DNA of 32,000 bases. Origin: Candidatus Calditenuaceae archaeon. Lineage in GTDB: Archaea > Thermoproteota > Nitrososphaeria_A > Caldarchaeales > Calditenuaceae. Position 1 is the first letter of the stretch, and every line of letters starts with the position of its first letter. Below the pieces are notes generated by a model, which was not told where the DNA came from, did no database searches, and was given only the letters and a program-made list of their open reading frames with translations. Below are positions 9,753-31,309 of the stretch, piece by piece. The translations under genes and the position numbers were made by a program. The stretch lies in contig JANXEU010000005.1 of assembly GCA_025058055.1 (NCBI GenBank), positions 45,467 through 77,466 of the forward strand. Direction: 5' to 3'.

Positions 9753-10475
9753 GTGAACCCACTCGAGCTCGTGAACGCAGCAATCGCCTCGCTCATGCTG
9801 GCAGTCGCCTCTTACATGGACCTGAAGAGAAGAGAGGTGGACGACTGGGTGTGGATGTTGCTCTCGTCGCTAACTCTTCCCTTGACCTTGTACCTCTGCT
9901 TGCTGCGTTGGGACACTCAGTATCCGCTTATAGTCGCGGCGTCCGTAGCCCTCTCTAGCCTCTTGGCGTTGATCTTCTATAAGTTCGAGTTCTACGGCGG
10001 CGCCGACGCTAAGGCCGTCATATCTCTCGCGCTCGCCCTTCCTGCCTCGTTCTACGGCAACAGGTTTCACCCCTTCTACCCTATCACGACCCTCCTCAAC
10101 GGCCTGTTGGTCTCCCTCTCCGTACCGGTATCCCTCTTAACCTACAACTTAGTCGTCCGGCCCGTCCTCCGGGGAGAGCCTGTCTTCGCAGGACTGGAAG
10201 GTCTCCCGCTTCACAAGAGGATCGGGGCCCTTTTCCTTGGAACGAGGGTCGACTGGCCCAAGACCTTTTGGGCGAAGATCCTCCTTAAGAACGGCGAGCG
10301 GCTTTCCCTCTCTCCCCCCCTCGAGAACTACTTCCCAAACCCGTTGAGCGGAACTCCAGAGAGAACGTGGGCCACACCCGGAATACCCTTGATAATCTTC
10401 ATAGCTTTAGGCCACGCGCTGAACGTCCTCTACGGCGACCTGCTCTTTCCCGTTGTCACTCTGTTGTCGAGATAG
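9753..10475 (+). CDS. A24-family aspartic peptidase (prepilin/preflagellin peptidase, PibD/FlaK-like)
   Basis: It is a polytopic membrane protein. The first catalytic Asp context is SYMDLKRREVDD and the GxGD-type motif is YGGADAK. Confidence 0.7.
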   Translation: MNPLELVNAAIASLMLAVASYMDLKRREVDDWVWMLLSSLTLPLTLYLCLLRWDTQYPLIVAASVALSSLLALIFYKFEFYGGADAKAVISLALALPASFYGNRFHPFYPITTLLNGLLVSLSVPVSLLTYNLVVRPVLRGEPVFAGLEGLPLHKRIGALFLGTRVDWPKTFWAKILLKNGERLSLSPPLENYFPNPLSGTPERTWATPGIPLIIFIALGHALNVLYGDLLFPVVTLLSR

Positions 10476-10800
10476 CCTTCTCTATCTCCCTCATTGCGAT
10501 TCCCAGCCTCAGGGCCTCCTTAAGCCTCGGCATGATACTCTCGAGGATCCTCTCGGCCTTGGCTCGGTTCCTTGCTAATACCACGCCGCGCCTTGTAAGG
10601 CTGAACTTCCTGTTCCTCTTCGCTTTGTCGCTTAACACCAGACCGTTCTTAACGAGCCTGTTCAGAGAGAGGTAAAGCGTAGGTTTCTTTATCTTAGTTT
10701 CCCTCTCAAGTTGCGAAACAGTCATAGGTGATTTCAATAGAGATTTCAATATTATCGGTTCCGAATAGCCCTTAGGATTTCTCTTGAGCTTCCTAACCAT
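10456..10800 (-). CDS. Small winged-helix transcriptional regulator
   Basis: The sequence ILKSLLKSPMTVSQLERETKIKKPTLYLSLNRLVKNGLV is a typical wHTH. An AT-rich TATA-like tract (10824-10836) lies upstream. Confidence 0.5.
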   Translation of the reverse strand: MVRKLKRNPKGYSEPIILKSLLKSPMTVSQLERETKIKKPTLYLSLNRLVKNGLVLSDKAKRNRKFSLTRRGVVLARNRAKAERILESIMPRLKEALRLGIAMREIEKAISTTE

Positions 10801-10860
10801 CGATATAGATATAGTTAAACCTCTATATATTTTTAATTCAACCTAGATTTCTGGTAAAAA

Positions 10861-11397
10861 TCAGGTTCTAATCATGGTTAAGGTTTGAACGGATTCCAAT
10901 ATCAGAAATTCTAATAACGCCGCGACGAACAGTACGAGTACTCCGAGTCCTATCATGTAAGCTACTAGTCTTATTTGGGATTTGAGTTCTCTTTTGATCA
11001 CCGACAAAAGAATTCTAATGCCTTCGTTGAAACATATTCCATAGGCAAAAAACTCTAATGCACCATATATAGCAAGAATGGGGACGAGAGCAAGCGCGAT
11101 GGGAGGGACGCCCGTGGTTATTGCAATCGCCGATACGTAAAGACCAGTGTTGTAAATGACGTAGATCCCCGCAGCCGTTCCGATCAAGGGCACGGACATC
11201 AGCAAAGCAATCGCGGCGTTGTTAGCGAAGATCGTCAAGGGTGAGTCGATGGAGACAGCGATAGACGTCAGCTCATCAGCCATGCGTTGTGCGACATCCC
11301 GGTCGAGTGGTTCGTGTGCTGTAACTGCGAAGATCGCGTACAAGATAGCTGTGGAGATCGCAGCCCACTTAAGCCTGATTGTTACCCACAAACTCAA
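10861..11397 (-). CDS. Integral membrane protein, SpoIIM/DUF95-like
   Basis: It has 5-6 TM helices and a pattern resembling the stage II sporulation protein M family (ALEFFAYGI...). The call is tentative. Confidence 0.45.
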   Translation of the reverse strand: MSLWVTIRLKWAAISTAILYAIFAVTAHEPLDRDVAQRMADELTSIAVSIDSPLTIFANNAAIALLMSVPLIGTAAGIYVIYNTGLYVSAIAITTGVPPIALALVPILAIYGALEFFAYGICFNEGIRILLSVIKRELKSQIRLVAYMIGLGVLVLFVAALLEFLILESVQTLTMIRT

Positions 11398-24995: not shown

Positions 24996-25697
24996 GTGCA
25001 GCGGATGTCGGTCGAGCTGCTTAGGGCAAGATTGAAGGAGCGGATCTCGAGCTTTCCAGAGCTCGGTGAGCTATGCGATCGTTGCCTCTCTTCGAGGAGG
25101 TGGGGAGGTAGCGTGGTGCTGATGGTGCTAGACGCGTCTTTCACCTCGATAGGCATGAGCTACTTCAGGTCTGTCGTGCCTGCTGTGGACAAAATCAGGA
25201 GGGACCTAGTAGAACCTGGTGTCCTGAAGAACCTTGAGGACTTGAATAGCGTCGACTTGGATCGCGTAAGGCCCTACTGGAGGAACGTAAGGTCTTGGGA
25301 GGTGGCGAAGAGCGTCGCGGGCTCCCTGCTGCAGCGAGACGGTGACGACGTATCGAGGTTGAGGAGATGGGCCTCTTCTGCCACACTCGAGGGCTGGCGA
25401 AGTGACTCCATAGGGTCTCTGAAGGGCGTGGGCCTAGTGACCTATCAGTATCTGAGGATGATGGGAGGAGTCGATACGGTCATGCCGGACAAGATCGTGA
25501 AGCGTGTGCTCAACGACATTCTGAAGGAGTGCGGCTTCGAAGTCGTCAGGGACGACCTTGAGTTCGTCAGACAGGTTGAGAGGATAGCCCACCTCACAGG
25601 ATACAGACCCATCGAGCTCTGCTGGTTCACTTGGCTCTTCAACGAGACCGAGCTGATGAAGAGACCGAGCTACCGGGAAGTCGTACACATGATCTAA
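24996..25697 (+). CDS. Hypothetical protein with a helix-hairpin-helix, HhH-GPD-like segment
   Basis: LKGVGLVTYQYLRMMGGVDTVMPDKIVKRVL resembles the HhH plus Asp motif of the endonuclease III/AGOG-type glycosylase superfamily. The rest is not recognisable. The start is probably the ATG at 25005. Confidence 0.4.
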   Translation: MQRMSVELLRARLKERISSFPELGELCDRCLSSRRWGGSVVLMVLDASFTSIGMSYFRSVVPAVDKIRRDLVEPGVLKNLEDLNSVDLDRVRPYWRNVRSWEVAKSVAGSLLQRDGDDVSRLRRWASSATLEGWRSDSIGSLKGVGLVTYQYLRMMGGVDTVMPDKIVKRVLNDILKECGFEVVRDDLEFVRQVERIAHLTGYRPIELCWFTWLFNETELMKRPSYREVVHMI

Positions 25698-26087: not shown

Positions 26088-26136
26088 CTCCTTCAGTCCG
26101 CCGTGCCGTCCCTCCTAAAATACGTGGGACCGTCAG

Positions 26137-26436
26137 TTATGGGACTCTGCCGCAGAGGTCACAGTACAGCTCGATCGCTAACCGATGGTCCAAACCTCTG
26201 ATGACGCTCACTGTTCGCAAGGCCTTTCCGGCATGCGGCTTGCGTTTCAACGGTTCTAGTATCCTGTCGTAATCTTCCTGCGACTTGACTCGGAGCCTCT
26301 TCCACCCCTCTTCGGCGTTAGTCGCTATCACGAAGAACTTCCTCTTGCAGCCCATCTGTGCGATCCTCCTGCCGCCCTGCTTCATAATTTTCCACCCGGT
26401 GTAAATCGTCTTCATCTCGACACCCGTCCTCTCCAA
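26137..26436 (-). CDS. Hypothetical small basic protein
   Basis: The support is an ORF with host-like composition. A more likely start is the ATG giving MKTIYTGWKIMKQGGRR... I recognised no family. Confidence 0.3.
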   Translation of the reverse strand: MERTGVEMKTIYTGWKIMKQGGRRIAQMGCKRKFFVIATNAEEGWKRLRVKSQEDYDRILEPLKRKPHAGKALRTVSVIRGLDHRLAIELYCDLCGRVP

Positions 26437-26665
26437 ATCGGCGAGGCCCTCAGGTATGCATCGCCCTCTCGAAGGAAGACCTAATCACCTCGGGGAAACT
26501 CGACGCGGCGAACCAAGCAGGGTACTCCAACTCTTGCCGCATAGGAGTAGGCGACCTGCGAATAGTCTACACTTTCAACTGCGCTAAAATTGATGAAACT
26601 AATTCACCCTGTTGAGCCAAGGGAAAGAGTACTAGATTCATTCAAGGTGAACACAACTTATTATC

Positions 26666-26730
26666 TGCGGAGGTGGGATTAGAACCCACGAGCCCCTGCG
26701 GGAGCAGGTCTTGAACCTGCCGCCGACGGC
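26666..26730 (-). tRNA. tRNA-Leu(CAA) 3' fragment: anticodon arm, long variable arm, T-arm and 3' acceptor strand, with no 5' acceptor or D-arm
   Basis: The minus strand reads GCAGG-TTCAAGA-CCTGC (anticodon CAA at 26711-26713), then TCCCGCAGGGGCTC (class II variable arm), then GTGGG-TTCTAAT-CCCAC (T-arm), then CTCCGCA. The complementary 5' strand (plus-strand CCTCCGC) is absent in the next 130 nt (26731-26860). Only 7 nt follow the T-stem, one fewer than canonical. Confidence 0.55.
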
Positions 26731-26783
26731 TTTACACAGCTTGTGCTTTTTTGCTACGAAACTTGTAATTAATAGTTCGTGTA

Positions 26784-26805
26784 AATTGGAAATCAATTGG
26801 AAATC
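26784..26805. repeat. Perfect tandem duplication of the 11-mer AATTGGAAATC
   Basis: This was read directly: gtaAATTGGAAATCAATTGGAAATCtac, in the AT-rich spacer between the tRNA fragment and the EVE-nuclease gene. Confidence 0.9.
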
Positions 26806-26862
26806 TACTGCGTGCAGAACAATTCCAACAATAACCTAAGTAATTGTAATTCTCAAGAACGT

Positions 26863-27751
26863 TTAGATCTGTAAGCCTATTTTTTCCCTAAAACCTGTAA
26901 GAGTCTTCAATAAATTGTACGCATCATTAATCTCTTTGATTGATAAGAACCTCAACTTTTTCTTGAAATCCTCTGAAAGCGTAGTTGTTTCGTCTTTTAT
27001 GCGCTCGAGTTGGTCCGGGTCAGAAATGACCACACAGGCCCTAACTGTGGGATTCTGACTCGCCCTAAGAAGATTGAGAATCAGCGAATCCACGCTGCCT
27101 CGCAACTGAACTTCAAAGACATATCTAATTTCACCTAGGTTGGCTATGCTCAGTTTCCAAACAGCGTCAACCACTGCGCCCCTAGCTATTCTAGTATCCT
27201 CCTCAGCATCAGATGCAGAGAAACCCATAAGGCTTCCTATTTCCAGAATTTTGGCTACAATTTCATCATGCTCCTCTATGTTCTCTTCTGACCTTTGTGG
27301 AGTTTCGGTAATCGTTGAGGACATGGCGTCTACGATTTTCTGGTAGTCGGACAAAGGTATGGGTCTGCCAAAATTAGCCGGTCCCCCGTGCGTCCCCCTT
27401 AAATACGCCCCGGGAAGACCTTTGTTTTCTATGAAAGACAGTTCGTTTACAAGTTGAGCTAATGGAACTTCACCTAATTTGATCTCTTCAAGTCGACATT
27501 CATGTAAGTACTTTTTTTTGGTTTTCTTGGTATTCATCGGGCCAAACTAATTCACGATTTTCATACCAGTCATTTATCAGCCTGAATGAGCCACTGAACA
27601 CACCCTCACCCACTAAGTAAAAAACAATAAAGTGCCCTTTTCGTACCTTTTTTGTGGCGCTCTCGCTGTATGTGGCCCAAATTTTATTGTTCTTGACGAT
27701 GTTCCAATTAGTCACCGAAACAGGCCAAACCCAGTATTGAACCTCTGACAC
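26863..27751 (-). CDS. EVE (UPF0310/PUA-like) domain protein fused to a PD-(D/E)xK-like nuclease domain, interrupted by a frameshift in an A8 run; candidate modification-dependent (type IV) restriction enzyme
   Basis: Track ORFs 27500..27751 and 26863..27537 overlap in different frames. Removing one A from the A8 run (plus-strand T8 at 27512-27519) joins them into about 295 aa: ...VWPDEYQENQKKYLHECRLEEIKLGEVPL... The N-terminus matches the UPF0310/EVE pattern (YWVWPVSVTNWNIV...IWA...VRKGHFIVFY...LSFIENKG...IPLSDYQKIV). The C-terminus has an alpha-beta-beta-beta pattern with E (ILEIGSLMGF), D (VVDAVW) and ExQ (FEVQLRGS). TTTATC (27776-27781) lies 25 nt upstream of the GTG start. Confidence 0.6.
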
Positions 27752-27855
27752 GTCGGTGACCTTACCGTACTGGTTGATAAACTTTCTAAACTATTCAATT
27801 CAGTAAGACTAGCCATAAAATAATCCACTATCAGCCAAAAAAATGTTTTTAGCAG

Positions 27856-28644
27856 TTAGTGTTGCAGGTTCGCATGTAATGTTATCGCAGCTGCTACTAC
27901 AACACTCGTTATTAGTAGGTAGAGGCCTCCGAAAGTTGTTTGCAGCGTTGGAATGATGACGAACGTGATGTTGTTCATGGTGTGGAACAGCATGGCGGCC
28001 AGTATGCTTTGGTTGGTATTGTTGTATATCCACGTGAAGAGAATGCTGCCGCTTACGATGAGGATTGCGAAGCCCCACCAAGGTTGTTGGGACTGCATTG
28101 TTCCGGGGATAAGGAACAGCGGTGTGTGCCAGAGGCCCCACACTATTCCAAGCATCAGGCTTGACATGAGGGCGTTCCAGCGGTTCTGCAGCCTTTCGAG
28201 AGCGTAGCCACGCCAGCCCCACTCCTCTTGGAACGGGCCTCCGAGGAAGAAAATGTATACGAATGCAACCGCCACGAAAACAGGATTTGACACCGCGTCG
28301 AACACGGGTAAGGAATCTCCGCTGACCACGGCTAGAAGTAGGGAGGCTCCAGCTATGGCGGGATGAGTCAGAAAAATCGGGAGCAGCCATGTTTTCCCGA
28401 ACCTGAGGTGGAATTTTCTGAGAAGGGTTTTGACTCCTGTTTTGCCGTGATTGAGGTAGCTTAGTGTGAATGCTGCGACGGCTGGACCGAAGGCAGCTGG
28501 GTTGAACGGGCTCTGTAAGAAACTGGTCAAAGCATCAGGCAGGGTCAGCAACCCGTTGGAAATCAAGGCCTGCGGAAACCAGAACAACCACGAAAACCCG
28601 AAGGCTATAAGGAAGAAAACCCAAAGGCGGTATTGCTCCCGCAC
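27856..28644 (-). CDS. CPBP-family intramembrane glutamic endopeptidase (CAAX protease/Abi-like)
   Basis: The motifs are EEWGWRGY (EExxxR), LWHTPLF (FxxxH-like) and FHTMNN (HxxxN), within a polytopic membrane protein. Confidence 0.8.
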   Translation of the reverse strand: MREQYRLWVFFLIAFGFSWLFWFPQALISNGLLTLPDALTSFLQSPFNPAAFGPAVAAFTLSYLNHGKTGVKTLLRKFHLRFGKTWLLPIFLTHPAIAGASLLLAVVSGDSLPVFDAVSNPVFVAVAFVYIFFLGGPFQEEWGWRGYALERLQNRWNALMSSLMLGIVWGLWHTPLFLIPGTMQSQQPWWGFAILIVSGSILFTWIYNNTNQSILAAMLFHTMNNITFVIIPTLQTTFGGLYLLITSVVVAAAITLHANLQH

Positions 28645-30087: not shown

Positions 30088-30528
30088 CTATGCAAAAATG
30101 CCTGACCCCGTTTTTTCATGGAAAAGTTTGACAGCGTTCTCGAACACATGCTTTGCGTTTTTCAGGCTGTTGGATGCTTCAGCTTCGTCGAAAAGCTCGC
30201 TGGGGCTCATTCCGGATGCTTCGACGCCGTACATGCTGGGAGCTCTCTTGACGGTGAGCTCTGCTGATATCCGGTCGAAGTCGGCGACGAGTGCTTGGAA
30301 CCATTCAGGAAACCTTTCGCTATGAAACTTGAGAACGTCTCCGACGTGATGGGTTTTCGGATACTCGATGCCTACGAGCCTAAGACAAGCCTTCAGCGAG
30401 AGCTCTACCAGCTCCTGACAGTACCTGACCACTTCGGGGTAGTCTCCTCTTGCGAAGGCCGCTTCGGCGTCAATCAGCCTTGCACGAGCTCTTCTGATGT
30501 AGTCAGCGGCCAGCTTCTCCATCTTCAT
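30088..30528 (-). CDS. HEPN-domain protein (PF05168-like), partner of the upstream MNT
   Basis: The sequence AADYIRRARARLIDAEAAFARGDYPEVVRYCQELVELSLKACL...YPKTHHVGDVL is HEPN-like. The preferred ATG at 30528 overlaps the MNT stop as ATGA. I could not find a canonical Rx4-6H motif. Confidence 0.7.
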   Translation of the reverse strand: MKMEKLAADYIRRARARLIDAEAAFARGDYPEVVRYCQELVELSLKACLRLVGIEYPKTHHVGDVLKFHSERFPEWFQALVADFDRISAELTVKRAPSMYGVEASGMSPSELFDEAEASNSLKNAKHVFENAVKLFHEKTGSGIFA

Positions 30529-31238
30529 GGCGCCATTTTTTGAGGCATAACCCAGTACCATTTCCCGTCCATAAGCTGTATGCGTTGCACTCCTTCAGCA
30601 GCCAGCCGGCTTCGAAGCGTTTCAAGCTTCTCAGCCATGAACCCTCCCTTGTCGTACATGATGACGGCTTCGTGAACCAAGTCAAGGTAGAAGGGCTGAG
30701 ATGTGTCAACCTCCTCCGTGTCGAGCAGAAGCATCTCGGGAACTGGGTGGACGCCAAACCTTCTGCCGATGCTGTTTTTCACCTCCTCCCACCCTTCGAC
30801 CATGTTCAGGACGAGTCGAACTCTGTCGCCGTAGCGGGACGGCATGCCGTCGGCGACTACCAGAAGGTCTACGTCGCTGTTTTCAACCGCCTTTCCCCGG
30901 GCGACGGAGCCGAACAGAAGCACAGTCCTGAGTCTTCCGCCGAAGCCTTCCCAAAGCCTAGCCAAAACAAACTCCAGCAAAGGCAGGTAAGCTTTCTGCA
31001 CCACCCTACTCCGCCAACCATACATGACATCAGTCAGCACCGCAAGAGGATGAACAACCCTATATTCACCCCGTCCCACCCTTTCAACCCATCCAAGCTT
31101 CACAAGCCTCGACAGAACAACCCTAGGGCTCTGGACACCGACAGCCGCAGCATCCGAAGAAGTAAAAACCCCCGTCCAGAAGCGGCTCAGCAGCAGGCCG
31201 TACTGCCAACCCAGCCAAGAAGGCACCCAATCAGCCAC
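30525..31238 (-). CDS. Winged-helix plus minimal nucleotidyltransferase (MNT, Pol-beta superfamily) fusion protein
   Basis: The NTase motif is LFGSVARGKAVENSDVDLLVV. The N-terminal wHTH is VVLSRLVKLGWVERVGRGEY. The GTG start at 31238 was chosen because the first 29 residues then align without gaps to the paralog at 31467 (W4, LG9-10, Y13, RF19-20, FTSSD25-29). TTATAT (31262-31267) lies 24 nt upstream. Confidence 0.75.
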   Translation of the reverse strand: MADWVPSWLGWQYGLLLSRFWTGVFTSSDAAAVGVQSPRVVLSRLVKLGWVERVGRGEYRVVHPLAVLTDVMYGWRSRVVQKAYLPLLEFVLARLWEGFGGRLRTVLLFGSVARGKAVENSDVDLLVVADGMPSRYGDRVRLVLNMVEGWEEVKNSIGRRFGVHPVPEMLLLDTEEVDTSQPFYLDLVHEAVIMYDKGGFMAEKLETLRSRLAAEGVQRIQLMDGKWYWVMPQKMAP

Positions 31239-31309
31239 AATAACCAAATAGCTTACAAAACATATAAGCGTAACATCGGCCACAGACAACAAACAACTGA
31301 GCAGCGCCT

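Follow-up and report, generated by a model that had tools for sequence, protein, structure and literature searches.

A frameshifted EVE–nuclease-like gene in a probable remnant of an integrated element in a thaumarchaeal genome

Introduction

Fusions of an EVE domain with a PD-(D/E)XK nuclease domain have already been predicted as a class of type IV restriction enzymes (Bell et al. 2020, BMC Biol 18:159; PMC7641849), and the EVE-HNH enzymes VcaM4I and TspA15I have been characterised on modified DNA (PMC7897488, PMC6765204). In the END nucleases reported by Yee et al. (2025, PMC12191111; bioRxiv 2025.03.31.646159) an inactivated EndoIII/OGG sensor (iEndoIII) is combined with a PLD nuclease, with McrB or with a 'NucS-like PD-DExK nuclease', and END-Mag (MDV2503288.1), a metagenomic member of the NucS-like PD-DExK type, restricts phages with modified guanines (PMC12191111). 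Here we describe a split gene located at positions 26863-27751 of a 32,000-nt stretch from a Candidatus Calditenuaceae archaeon (GenBank assembly GCA_025058055.1, contig JANXEU010000005.1, positions 45,467 to 77,466 of the forward strand), which is called the window in the following. A reading of the window made from its letters alone, hereafter the sequence-only reading, had proposed a candidate modification-dependent restriction enzyme at this place, consisting of an EVE reader domain and a PD-(D/E)xK-like domain and encoded in a tRNA-flanked AT-rich island.

The protein shares several features with the EVE-PD(D/E)XK predictions, as an EVE reader and a predicted restriction-endonuclease fold are combined in one polypeptide, a cognate methyltransferase is missing, and the surroundings of the relatives are of the defence or mobile kind, with the archaeal association of EVE with DUF499/COG1743/SNF2 as one case. 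It differs from this class in that its nuclease domain has no Pfam PD-(D/E)xK match and shows E-x-Q/H in place of (D/E)-x-K, and in that the copy is frameshifted. With the PD-DExK branch of the END nucleases it has the modular arrangement of sensor and nuclease in common as well as a C-terminal domain that is homologous to the one found in PF21790 proteins without catalytic Lys and Asp, whereas the defining iEndoIII sensor is replaced by EVE. VcaM4I and TspA15I use EVE as the 5-methylcytosine and 5-hydroxymethylcytosine sensor of a modification-dependent endonuclease, the same arrangement in a characterised form, but their catalytic domain is of the HNH type and not a restriction-endonuclease fold.

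On balance, and with some reserve, we think that the locus is probably a decayed remnant of an integrated element with one gene for a single-chain modification-dependent (type IV-like) nuclease, which has been inactivated here. That EVE-nuclease fusions are an established type IV prediction had been stated correctly by the sequence-only reading. The class itself has already been predicted, and the one useful addition of this locus is the link of the EVE fusion to the END-type nuclease module.

Results and Discussion

Not one continuous gene but two overlapping minus-strand open reading frames (ORF), named ORF-N and ORF-C, span positions 26863-27751 (Table 1). ORF-C, whose first ~9 residues are an out-of-frame translation, is identical to the GenBank 'hypothetical protein NZ988_01230' of a Thaumarchaeota metagenome-assembled genome (P0001). 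Deletion of one A from the A8 run joins both ORF into a 295-aa protein, referred to as the repaired protein, and its junction reads ...PDEYQENQKKYLHECRLEE... where intact homologues read ...DEIRENTKKYPFEC.... Since the ORF join only after removal of this one A, the 'repaired' 295-aa sequence mentioned in the sequence-only reading had implied the frameshift, and all motifs quoted there are found on the minus strand between 26863 and 27751. What has to be corrected is the notion of a working enzyme in this window, as the coding sequence in the source genome is not intact, with a +1A frameshift inside the EVE domain, and is probably non-functional. An independently assembled Logan contig (L004, run SRR15826900), which occurs in two samples, agrees with the window in every base over 1862 bp (100% identity) and has the A8 run as well, and the frameshift is thus reproducible and no artefact of a single assembler. 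The A-run is absent at this position in both homologous genes that were examined (L001 and L005), which argues for a lineage-specific slippage lesion and against a conserved recoding signal; a programmed frameshift was therefore judged unlikely. Most likely, an expansion from A7 to A8 by one base splits the gene within the EVE domain and would leave the enzyme inactive in the source genome.

One might also propose that the gene is functional, either because the additional A was introduced by sequencing or assembly, or because transcriptional or +1 ribosomal slippage on A8 yields a low level of full-length protein, the run then being a phase-variable switch for a potentially self-toxic nuclease. 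Both halves are indeed still open over a long stretch and none of the conserved residues has been lost, from which the lesion must be recent, homopolymer runs are in general classic slippage sites, and judging from the codons present a tRNA-Lys paired with AAA could shift to AAG in the +1 frame. However, the same A8 is found in the independent assembly from two samples, the lack of the run in the two homologous genes speaks against a conserved recoding site, a run of eight is short for efficient slippage, and neither a stimulatory stop nor a rare codon follows directly after it, so that we regard a functional gene as unlikely.

The reading as an inactivated gene in a decayed element is also based on its surroundings. 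The gene is located in an AT-rich islet that contains a tRNA fragment, a spacer and the split gene with its promoter region, and nothing else. As stated in the sequence-only reading, the GC content (guanine plus cytosine) is lowest here, the islet providing the lowest 500-bp bins of the whole window (Table 1); the gene itself has a GC content of 0.43 and its homologues of 0.39-0.47. On both sides the islet is flanked by housekeeping genes, among them those for ribosomal protein S8, the A-type ATPase A subunit, a CAAX/CPBP protease and TusA/DsrE. The tRNA fragment keeps the anticodon arm (CAA), the long variable arm, the T arm and the 3' acceptor strand, has no 5' acceptor strand and no D arm, and shows an atypical T loop (TTCTAAT). 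When a synthetic 5' third is placed in front of it, ARAGORN identifies a tRNA-Leu(caa), which was the case for none of 200 shuffled controls, and the fragment as it stands is called neither by ARAGORN (default and intron modes) nor by Rfam (gathering and E-value thresholds, also with the cropped stretch). An ARAGORN run at a lowered threshold (-ps80) was discarded as it gave 103 spurious genes. No match to the fragment was obtained in metagenome contigs using an exact 36-nt search, and the window contains neither an intact tRNA nor a partner repeat or an integrase. The sole candidate for an attachment-site-like direct repeat at the other edge of the islet was an 11-nt match at chance level and was rejected. 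Thus, the 'tRNA-flanked' island holds insofar as the tRNA fragment is real, but it is only a fragment and lies on one side only. We counted the composition anomaly, the tRNA-Leu 3' fragment and the reproduced frameshift for foreign origin and decay, and the simplest reading of these features would be an integrated element of which almost nothing remains but one attachment-site fragment and one broken cargo gene.

The TATA-like TTTATC element is located 24 nt upstream of the GTG start, a position consistent with a leaderless mRNA. No methyltransferase adjoins the gene in the window, its neighbours being the tRNA fragment, a 99-aa ORF and the genes for ribosomal protein S8 and the CAAX protease; the repaired ORF therefore joins a modified-base reader and a nuclease-like domain without a cognate methyltransferase, as is characteristic of type IV systems. 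The AT-rich spacer that separates the tRNA fragment from the gene's stop codon contains a perfect tandem of two copies of AATTGGAAATC (26784-26805). The Logan contig L004 corresponds to window positions 26103-27964, and this independent assembly breaks on both sides just beyond the AT-rich islet, which could reflect a strain-level presence/absence variation of the islet or merely a local polymorphism.

The N-terminal ~150 residues of the repaired protein had been assigned to EVE by the sequence-only reading, and the UPF0310 model from NCBIfam, sequence matches in the PDB and structural comparison all agree with it. PRK00809, the UPF0310 model, matches residues 4-142 with E = 3e-23 against profile positions 1-144 of 146, the score of 82 bits being below the 139-bit cut-off that is meant for stand-alone proteins. 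Intact homologues of the repaired protein have a length of 294-295 aa and are found with E = 1e-72 to 1e-110, and together with the PRK00809 match this similarity is far beyond chance. Sequence matches in the PDB are 2p5d (MJECL36, E = 1e-7) and 1wmm (PH1033, E = 6e-6). A check against Pfam PF01878 had been suggested, and here the result is divided, since the diverged window copy is not matched at E<=1 but the intact homologues P0002, P0005 and P0008 are matched at ~1e-10 and above the gathering score. We modelled the whole repaired protein with AlphaFold2 on an alignment of 88 sequences and obtained two well-defined domains (mean pLDDT, the predicted local distance difference test, of 91) connected by a disordered linker at residues 146-157. 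Foldseek against the PDB gave 2hd9, 1wmm and 2p5d (again PH1033 and MJECL36) as top matches with E from 1.6e-10 to 1.1e-9 and a template-modelling (TM) score of ~0.8, normalised to the target, followed by dozens of YTH domains that bind N6-methyladenosine (m6A). The aromatic residues W62, W70, Y116 and F106 are invariant among the EVE fusions, and the assignment to the EVE / PUA-like domains is secure. The stand-alone archaeal UPF0310 proteins PH1033 and MJECL36 are thus the closest relatives of this domain in sequence and structure, but unlike the repaired protein they are single-domain proteins of ~145 aa without a nuclease module or an assigned function.

The C-terminal ~140 residues were also modelled alone, resulting in a confident prediction (pLDDT 95.2, predicted TM score 0.88). 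The model shows a helix at residues 161-174, short strands, a beta-hairpin at 196-202/206-215, a helix at 220-230, a strand at 236-243, a helix, a strand and a long helix, and this is the order of elements expected for the alpha-beta-beta-beta-alpha-beta core of the PD-(D/E)xK superfamily. Top matches of Foldseek in the PDB are MspJI, MUS81, BamHI, Can2, EcoT38I, OkrAI, YaeQ, MunI, Hachiman HamA and Cap4, with BamHI reaching a probability of 0.97 and a root-mean-square deviation of 3.5 over 95 columns and EcoT38I a TM score of 0.50. The top matches in BFVD include Mrr-like proteins, several 'restriction endonucleases', a PD-(D/E)XK protein, endonuclease I and Cas4. NucS is not among the top 50 structural matches. 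Enzymes of the PD-(D/E)xK superfamily thus dominate the Foldseek lists, as the sequence-only reading had anticipated, but no sequence profile recognises the domain. The best structural neighbour in the PDB is MspJI (4f0p, probability 0.93), which likewise combines an N-terminal base-flipping reader of the PUA superfamily with a C-terminal cutter of the restriction-endonuclease fold. It differs in being a bacterial enzyme of ~450 aa with an SRA instead of an EVE reader and with the motif D...Q-x-K, and with 9% identity it has no detectable sequence similarity to the window domain.

Conservation was counted over 278 relatives, the denominators varying by position. D195 is kept in 271 of 271, W198 in 272 of 272, H161 in 243 of 246 and E213 in 273 of 278, and at position 215 we found Q in 239, H in 38 and K in one relative, so that Q or H is present in 277 of 278. 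A conserved helix G-S-x-D-S-L-x-x-N follows after position 215. In the model one hairpin strand begins just after D195 and the following strand ends with E213-V-Q215, and these residues are thus placed where the superfamily has its PD and (D/E)xK residues. From the catalytic site expected in the sequence-only reading (E / D / E-x-Q), D195 and E-x-Q are conserved but the helix glutamate E170 is not, the invariant residue of this helix being H161. Variants without the lysine are known in active enzymes, namely E-x-Q in BglII and E-x-E in BamHI, and for this reason the domain can still be read as a probable metal-dependent nuclease, a reading that draws on the predicted fold, the weak structural matches and the conservation, with no profile match among its grounds.

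A different role for this domain would be that of a DNA-binding, oligomerisation or partner-recruiting module, the proteins being accessory sensors for Hma / BREX-related DUF499-methyltransferase-helicase systems. The EVE fusion P0008 and the OGG-like fusion P0035 described below are both encoded beside DUF499-DUF1156-SNF2 systems, a plasmid copy from Natronosalvus lies beside a helicase and a methyltransferase, and a recurrent association of EVE with the DUF499 system was noted by Bell et al. (PMC7641849). Moreover, the canonical catalytic lysine is missing and the domain is also appended to a protein that already has a nuclease (the OLD ATPase-TOPRIM protein P0171). On the other hand, the near invariance of D195, E213 and H161 is typical of a metal site, E-x-Q and E-x-E sites of the BglII and BamHI type are active, many family members including the one in the window have no such system nearby, and END-Mag, if it belongs to the same family, works as a single gene. 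A pure adaptor function appears quite improbable to us.

For the probable nuclease domain we counted relatives by scanning all 1.84 billion cluster representatives with HMMER and a profile of the C-terminal domain, and found it in 779 clusters at E<=1e-3 and in 409 at E<=1e-10. Most relatives have 350-370 aa with the domain at the C-terminus, and in 40 of 88 sampled relatives Pfam PF21790 ('OGG-like') matches the N-terminal part. This OGG-like part shows the helix-hairpin-helix (HhH) motif K-G-x-G-P-A...E-I-L, with 'GPA' at the lysine position and W-N at the position of the glycosylase aspartate, from which it follows that both catalytic residues of Ogg2-type glycosylases (Lys, Asp) are replaced. 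A full-family profile against PDB sequences gave a weak OGG match, located only in the N-terminal part of the long relatives. The C-terminal domain of the window protein shares 40-50% identity with that of the ~360-aa PF21790 proteins (E down to 1e-31), whereas EVE takes the place of the OGG-like domain in only ~10 clusters. The sequence-only reading had not recognised this domain, which turns out to be common to a few hundred clusters of proteins with an inactivated OGG/EndoIII-like sensor. Further partners are an OLD-like ATPase-TOPRIM protein (P0171, 553 aa), a TOPRIM protein and a ParE-toxin-like protein (the set P0171, P0153 and P0221). Judged by this range of partners, conflict systems use the C-terminal domain as a promiscuous module.

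A strong lead is given by the architecture described for the END nucleases, with which these proteins agree, and the C-terminal domain probably represents their PD-DExK branch. The window protein itself has an EVE domain at the N-terminus and no PF21790 or HhH match; since the iEndoIII sensor is absent, it is not filed as an END nuclease. It rather looks like a version of the END-type layout in which the iEndoIII sensor has been swapped for EVE.

Among the genomic contexts of the relatives, that of the homologue P0005 (46% identical) is a virus-like contig carrying a terminase and a Mu-type portal; two DNA methyltransferases, a UvrD-Cas4 helicase-nuclease, a DCD-domain protein, AGOG and UDG are encoded there as well. 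P0006 adjoins a type III restriction-modification system, and P0262 adjoins a DDE transposase and an HSDR_N protein. P0008, found in Bathyarchaeia and Methanomethylicia, has a type III CRISPR-Cas locus on one side and on the other a DUF499-DUF1156-SNF2/NOV_C system, the latter known as the Hma or 'BREX-related' system (PMC12839542). OGG-like versions occur beside a DUF499-DUF1156-SNF2 system in Caldarchaeum (P0035), beside giant helicases in Pseudobacter and on archaeal plasmids, and in an IMG/VR viral contig where a neighbouring ORF resembles, by eye, a terminase large subunit. The sequence-only reading had suggested a search for homologues in defence islands, and with virus-like, restriction-modification, CRISPR, Hma/DUF499 and transposase neighbours the family is, by its surroundings, clearly a mobile, conflict-associated module. 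No match was found when GenBank phages were searched for relatives, and a scan of representative genomes with the fusion alignment gave two loci only, owing to the narrow back-translated pattern.

Two of these loci deserve a separate description. The virus-like JGI contig L001 (3300035179, Ga0373630_0001090, 1-20885) encodes an intact EVE-nuclease homologue and in addition a DCD-domain protein, AGOG, UDG, DUF6884, two DNA methyltransferases and a UvrD-Cas4 fusion, a set of base-modification and base-excision genes that is unusually dense for one archaeal virus. On the Natronosalvus amylolyticus plasmid NZ_CP101159 (L014, 6479-7543) an OGG-like/nuclease gene is split by a stop codon into parts of 164 aa and 187 aa and adjoins genes for a DEAD/DEAH helicase and a large DNA methyltransferase. 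This gives a second example of a disrupted copy in the family.

That the family acts on modified RNA (for example tRNAs or viral or cellular transcripts bearing m6A-like marks), bound by an EVE/YTH-like RNA reader and cut by a PD-(D/E)xK-type RNase, would agree with the YTH domains as nearest structural relatives after UPF0310, with the JGI label 'predicted RNA-binding protein' of the homologues and with the established cleavage of both RNA and DNA by some PD-(D/E)xK effectors among the matches (Can2), but is highly improbable given that the characterised EVE-nuclease fusions VcaM4I and TspA15I act on modified DNA, that the sister architecture has a sensor derived from a DNA glycosylase and END-Mag restricts phages with modified DNA, and that the relatives have DNA methyltransferases, restriction-modification systems and helicases as neighbours.

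Several points weigh against our preferred reading of the locus as the remnant of an element with an inactivated modification-dependent nuclease gene. UPF0310/EVE proteins are frequently annotated as RNA-binding. The structural matches of the C-terminal domain are all weak, the best having E = 0.018 in the PDB and 1.7e-3 in BFVD with TM scores of 0.4-0.6, and Foldseek against the PDB gave no match at E<=1e-3. Pfam, NCBIfam, PADLOC and PHROGs are silent on this domain, be it in the window protein, as the domain alone or in the 88 relatives taken singly, and both the domain-only and the full-family profile gave noise for it against PDB sequences. With Q or H in place of the canonical lysine of (D/E)xK the canonical motif is missing, and the restriction-endonuclease fold is also found in non-catalytic proteins, the N-terminal domain of RPB5 being among the BFVD matches. 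The family tie to END-Mag is based on the published architecture and not on the END-Mag sequence, and the A8 run is known from assemblies alone, so that the reality of the mutation would rest on reads. None of the outcomes that the sequence-only reading had named as speaking against its proposal came up, and its architecture call was essentially correct; of the modification-dependent restriction enzyme it proposed, the combination of EVE and a nuclease-like domain was right, but this copy is frameshifted.

For the intact 295-aa form we propose that EVE would flip out a non-canonical base of the invading DNA and hold it in its pocket, thereby tethering the C-terminal domain of the restriction-endonuclease fold, which might then cut the DNA nearby. 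The putative metal site would be formed by D195 and E213-x-Q215 together with H161, and by analogy with MspJI-type enzymes the protein is probably a dimer or a higher oligomer. As the nuclease module is normally present on an inactivated OGG/EndoIII-like sensor, the window protein would be the sensor-swap version. A dependence on modified DNA as well as a role in defence may be assumed for the intact relatives.

One could go further and assume in one joint proposal an unannotated, self-sufficient D...E-x-Q/H effector nuclease that is plugged onto swappable base sensors, which would be EVE in Thaumarchaeota, Bathyarchaeia and their viruses and inactivated OGG/EndoIII elsewhere, and onto conflict modules (OLD ATPase-TOPRIM, ParE-like), with the EVE version extending END-type restriction to other DNA modifications and being used by archaeal viruses too, and with A8 acting as a reversible off-switch; as a whole this is doubtful. 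If the intact relatives are active, they would add a branch from archaea and their viruses to the single-protein enzymes that destroy chemically modified invader DNA. The END nuclease module would then work with a second, unrelated sensor, which might help to predict the DNA modifications of thaumarchaeal viruses and might provide a new scaffold for modification-specific DNA cutters. The window copy itself would be of little importance to its host, being a broken leftover of a mobile element.

Table 1: Coordinates of the features in and around the split gene (positions in the window; residue numbers refer to the repaired protein).
Feature	Position	Strand	Remarks
AT-rich islet	26600..27900	–	~1.3 kb; GC 0.32-0.47 vs ~0.56 in flanks
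tRNA-Leu(CAA)-like 3' fragment	26667..26721	minus	55 nt, at low-coordinate edge of islet; ~3' two-thirds of the tRNA
ORF-C	27537..26863	minus	224 aa; last third of EVE domain, disordered linker and nuclease-like domain
Restriction-endonuclease-like domain	26866..27279	minus	residues 158-295, ~140 residues
Q215 codon	27106-27108	minus	near-invariant
E213 codon	27112-27114	minus	near-invariant
D195 codon	27166-27168	minus	near-invariant
H161 codon	27268-27270	minus	near-invariant
EVE / UPF0310 (PUA-like) domain	27325..27742	minus	residues 4-142, cut by the frameshift
ORF-N	27751..27500	minus	83 aa, GTG start; first two thirds of EVE domain
ORF-N end		minus	TGA 4 codons past the A8 run
A8 homopolymer	27512-27519	minus	T8 on plus strand; carries the +1A frameshift between ORF-N and ORF-C
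Putative promoter	27776..27787	minus	TATA-like TTTATC (27776-27781) and upstream purine-rich AGAAAG, read from sequence

Some further observations were made in the window. An ORF for a HEPN-domain protein (30088-30561, minus strand; PF05168, E = 1e-19) overlaps an ORF with NTP_transf_2 and AbiEi_4 (30525-31292, minus strand), and both look like a toxin-antitoxin pair of the HEPN-MNT type, located ~2.5 kb from the islet. A 233-aa ORF on the plus strand (24996-25697) shows by eye a helix-hairpin-helix-like motif (LKGVGLVTYQYL...VDTVMPDKIVKRVL) and has no match in Pfam, NCBIfam or the PDB; that it is a relative of the OGG-like/nuclease proteins was ruled out by hhalign. A second dip in GC content lies at 10456-11000 (0.43 in 10501-11000) and includes an ORF with an ArsR/TrmB-type helix-turn-helix (10456-10800, minus strand) that weakly matches the Sulfolobus plasmid regulator family pRN, and this region may be another small foreign insert.

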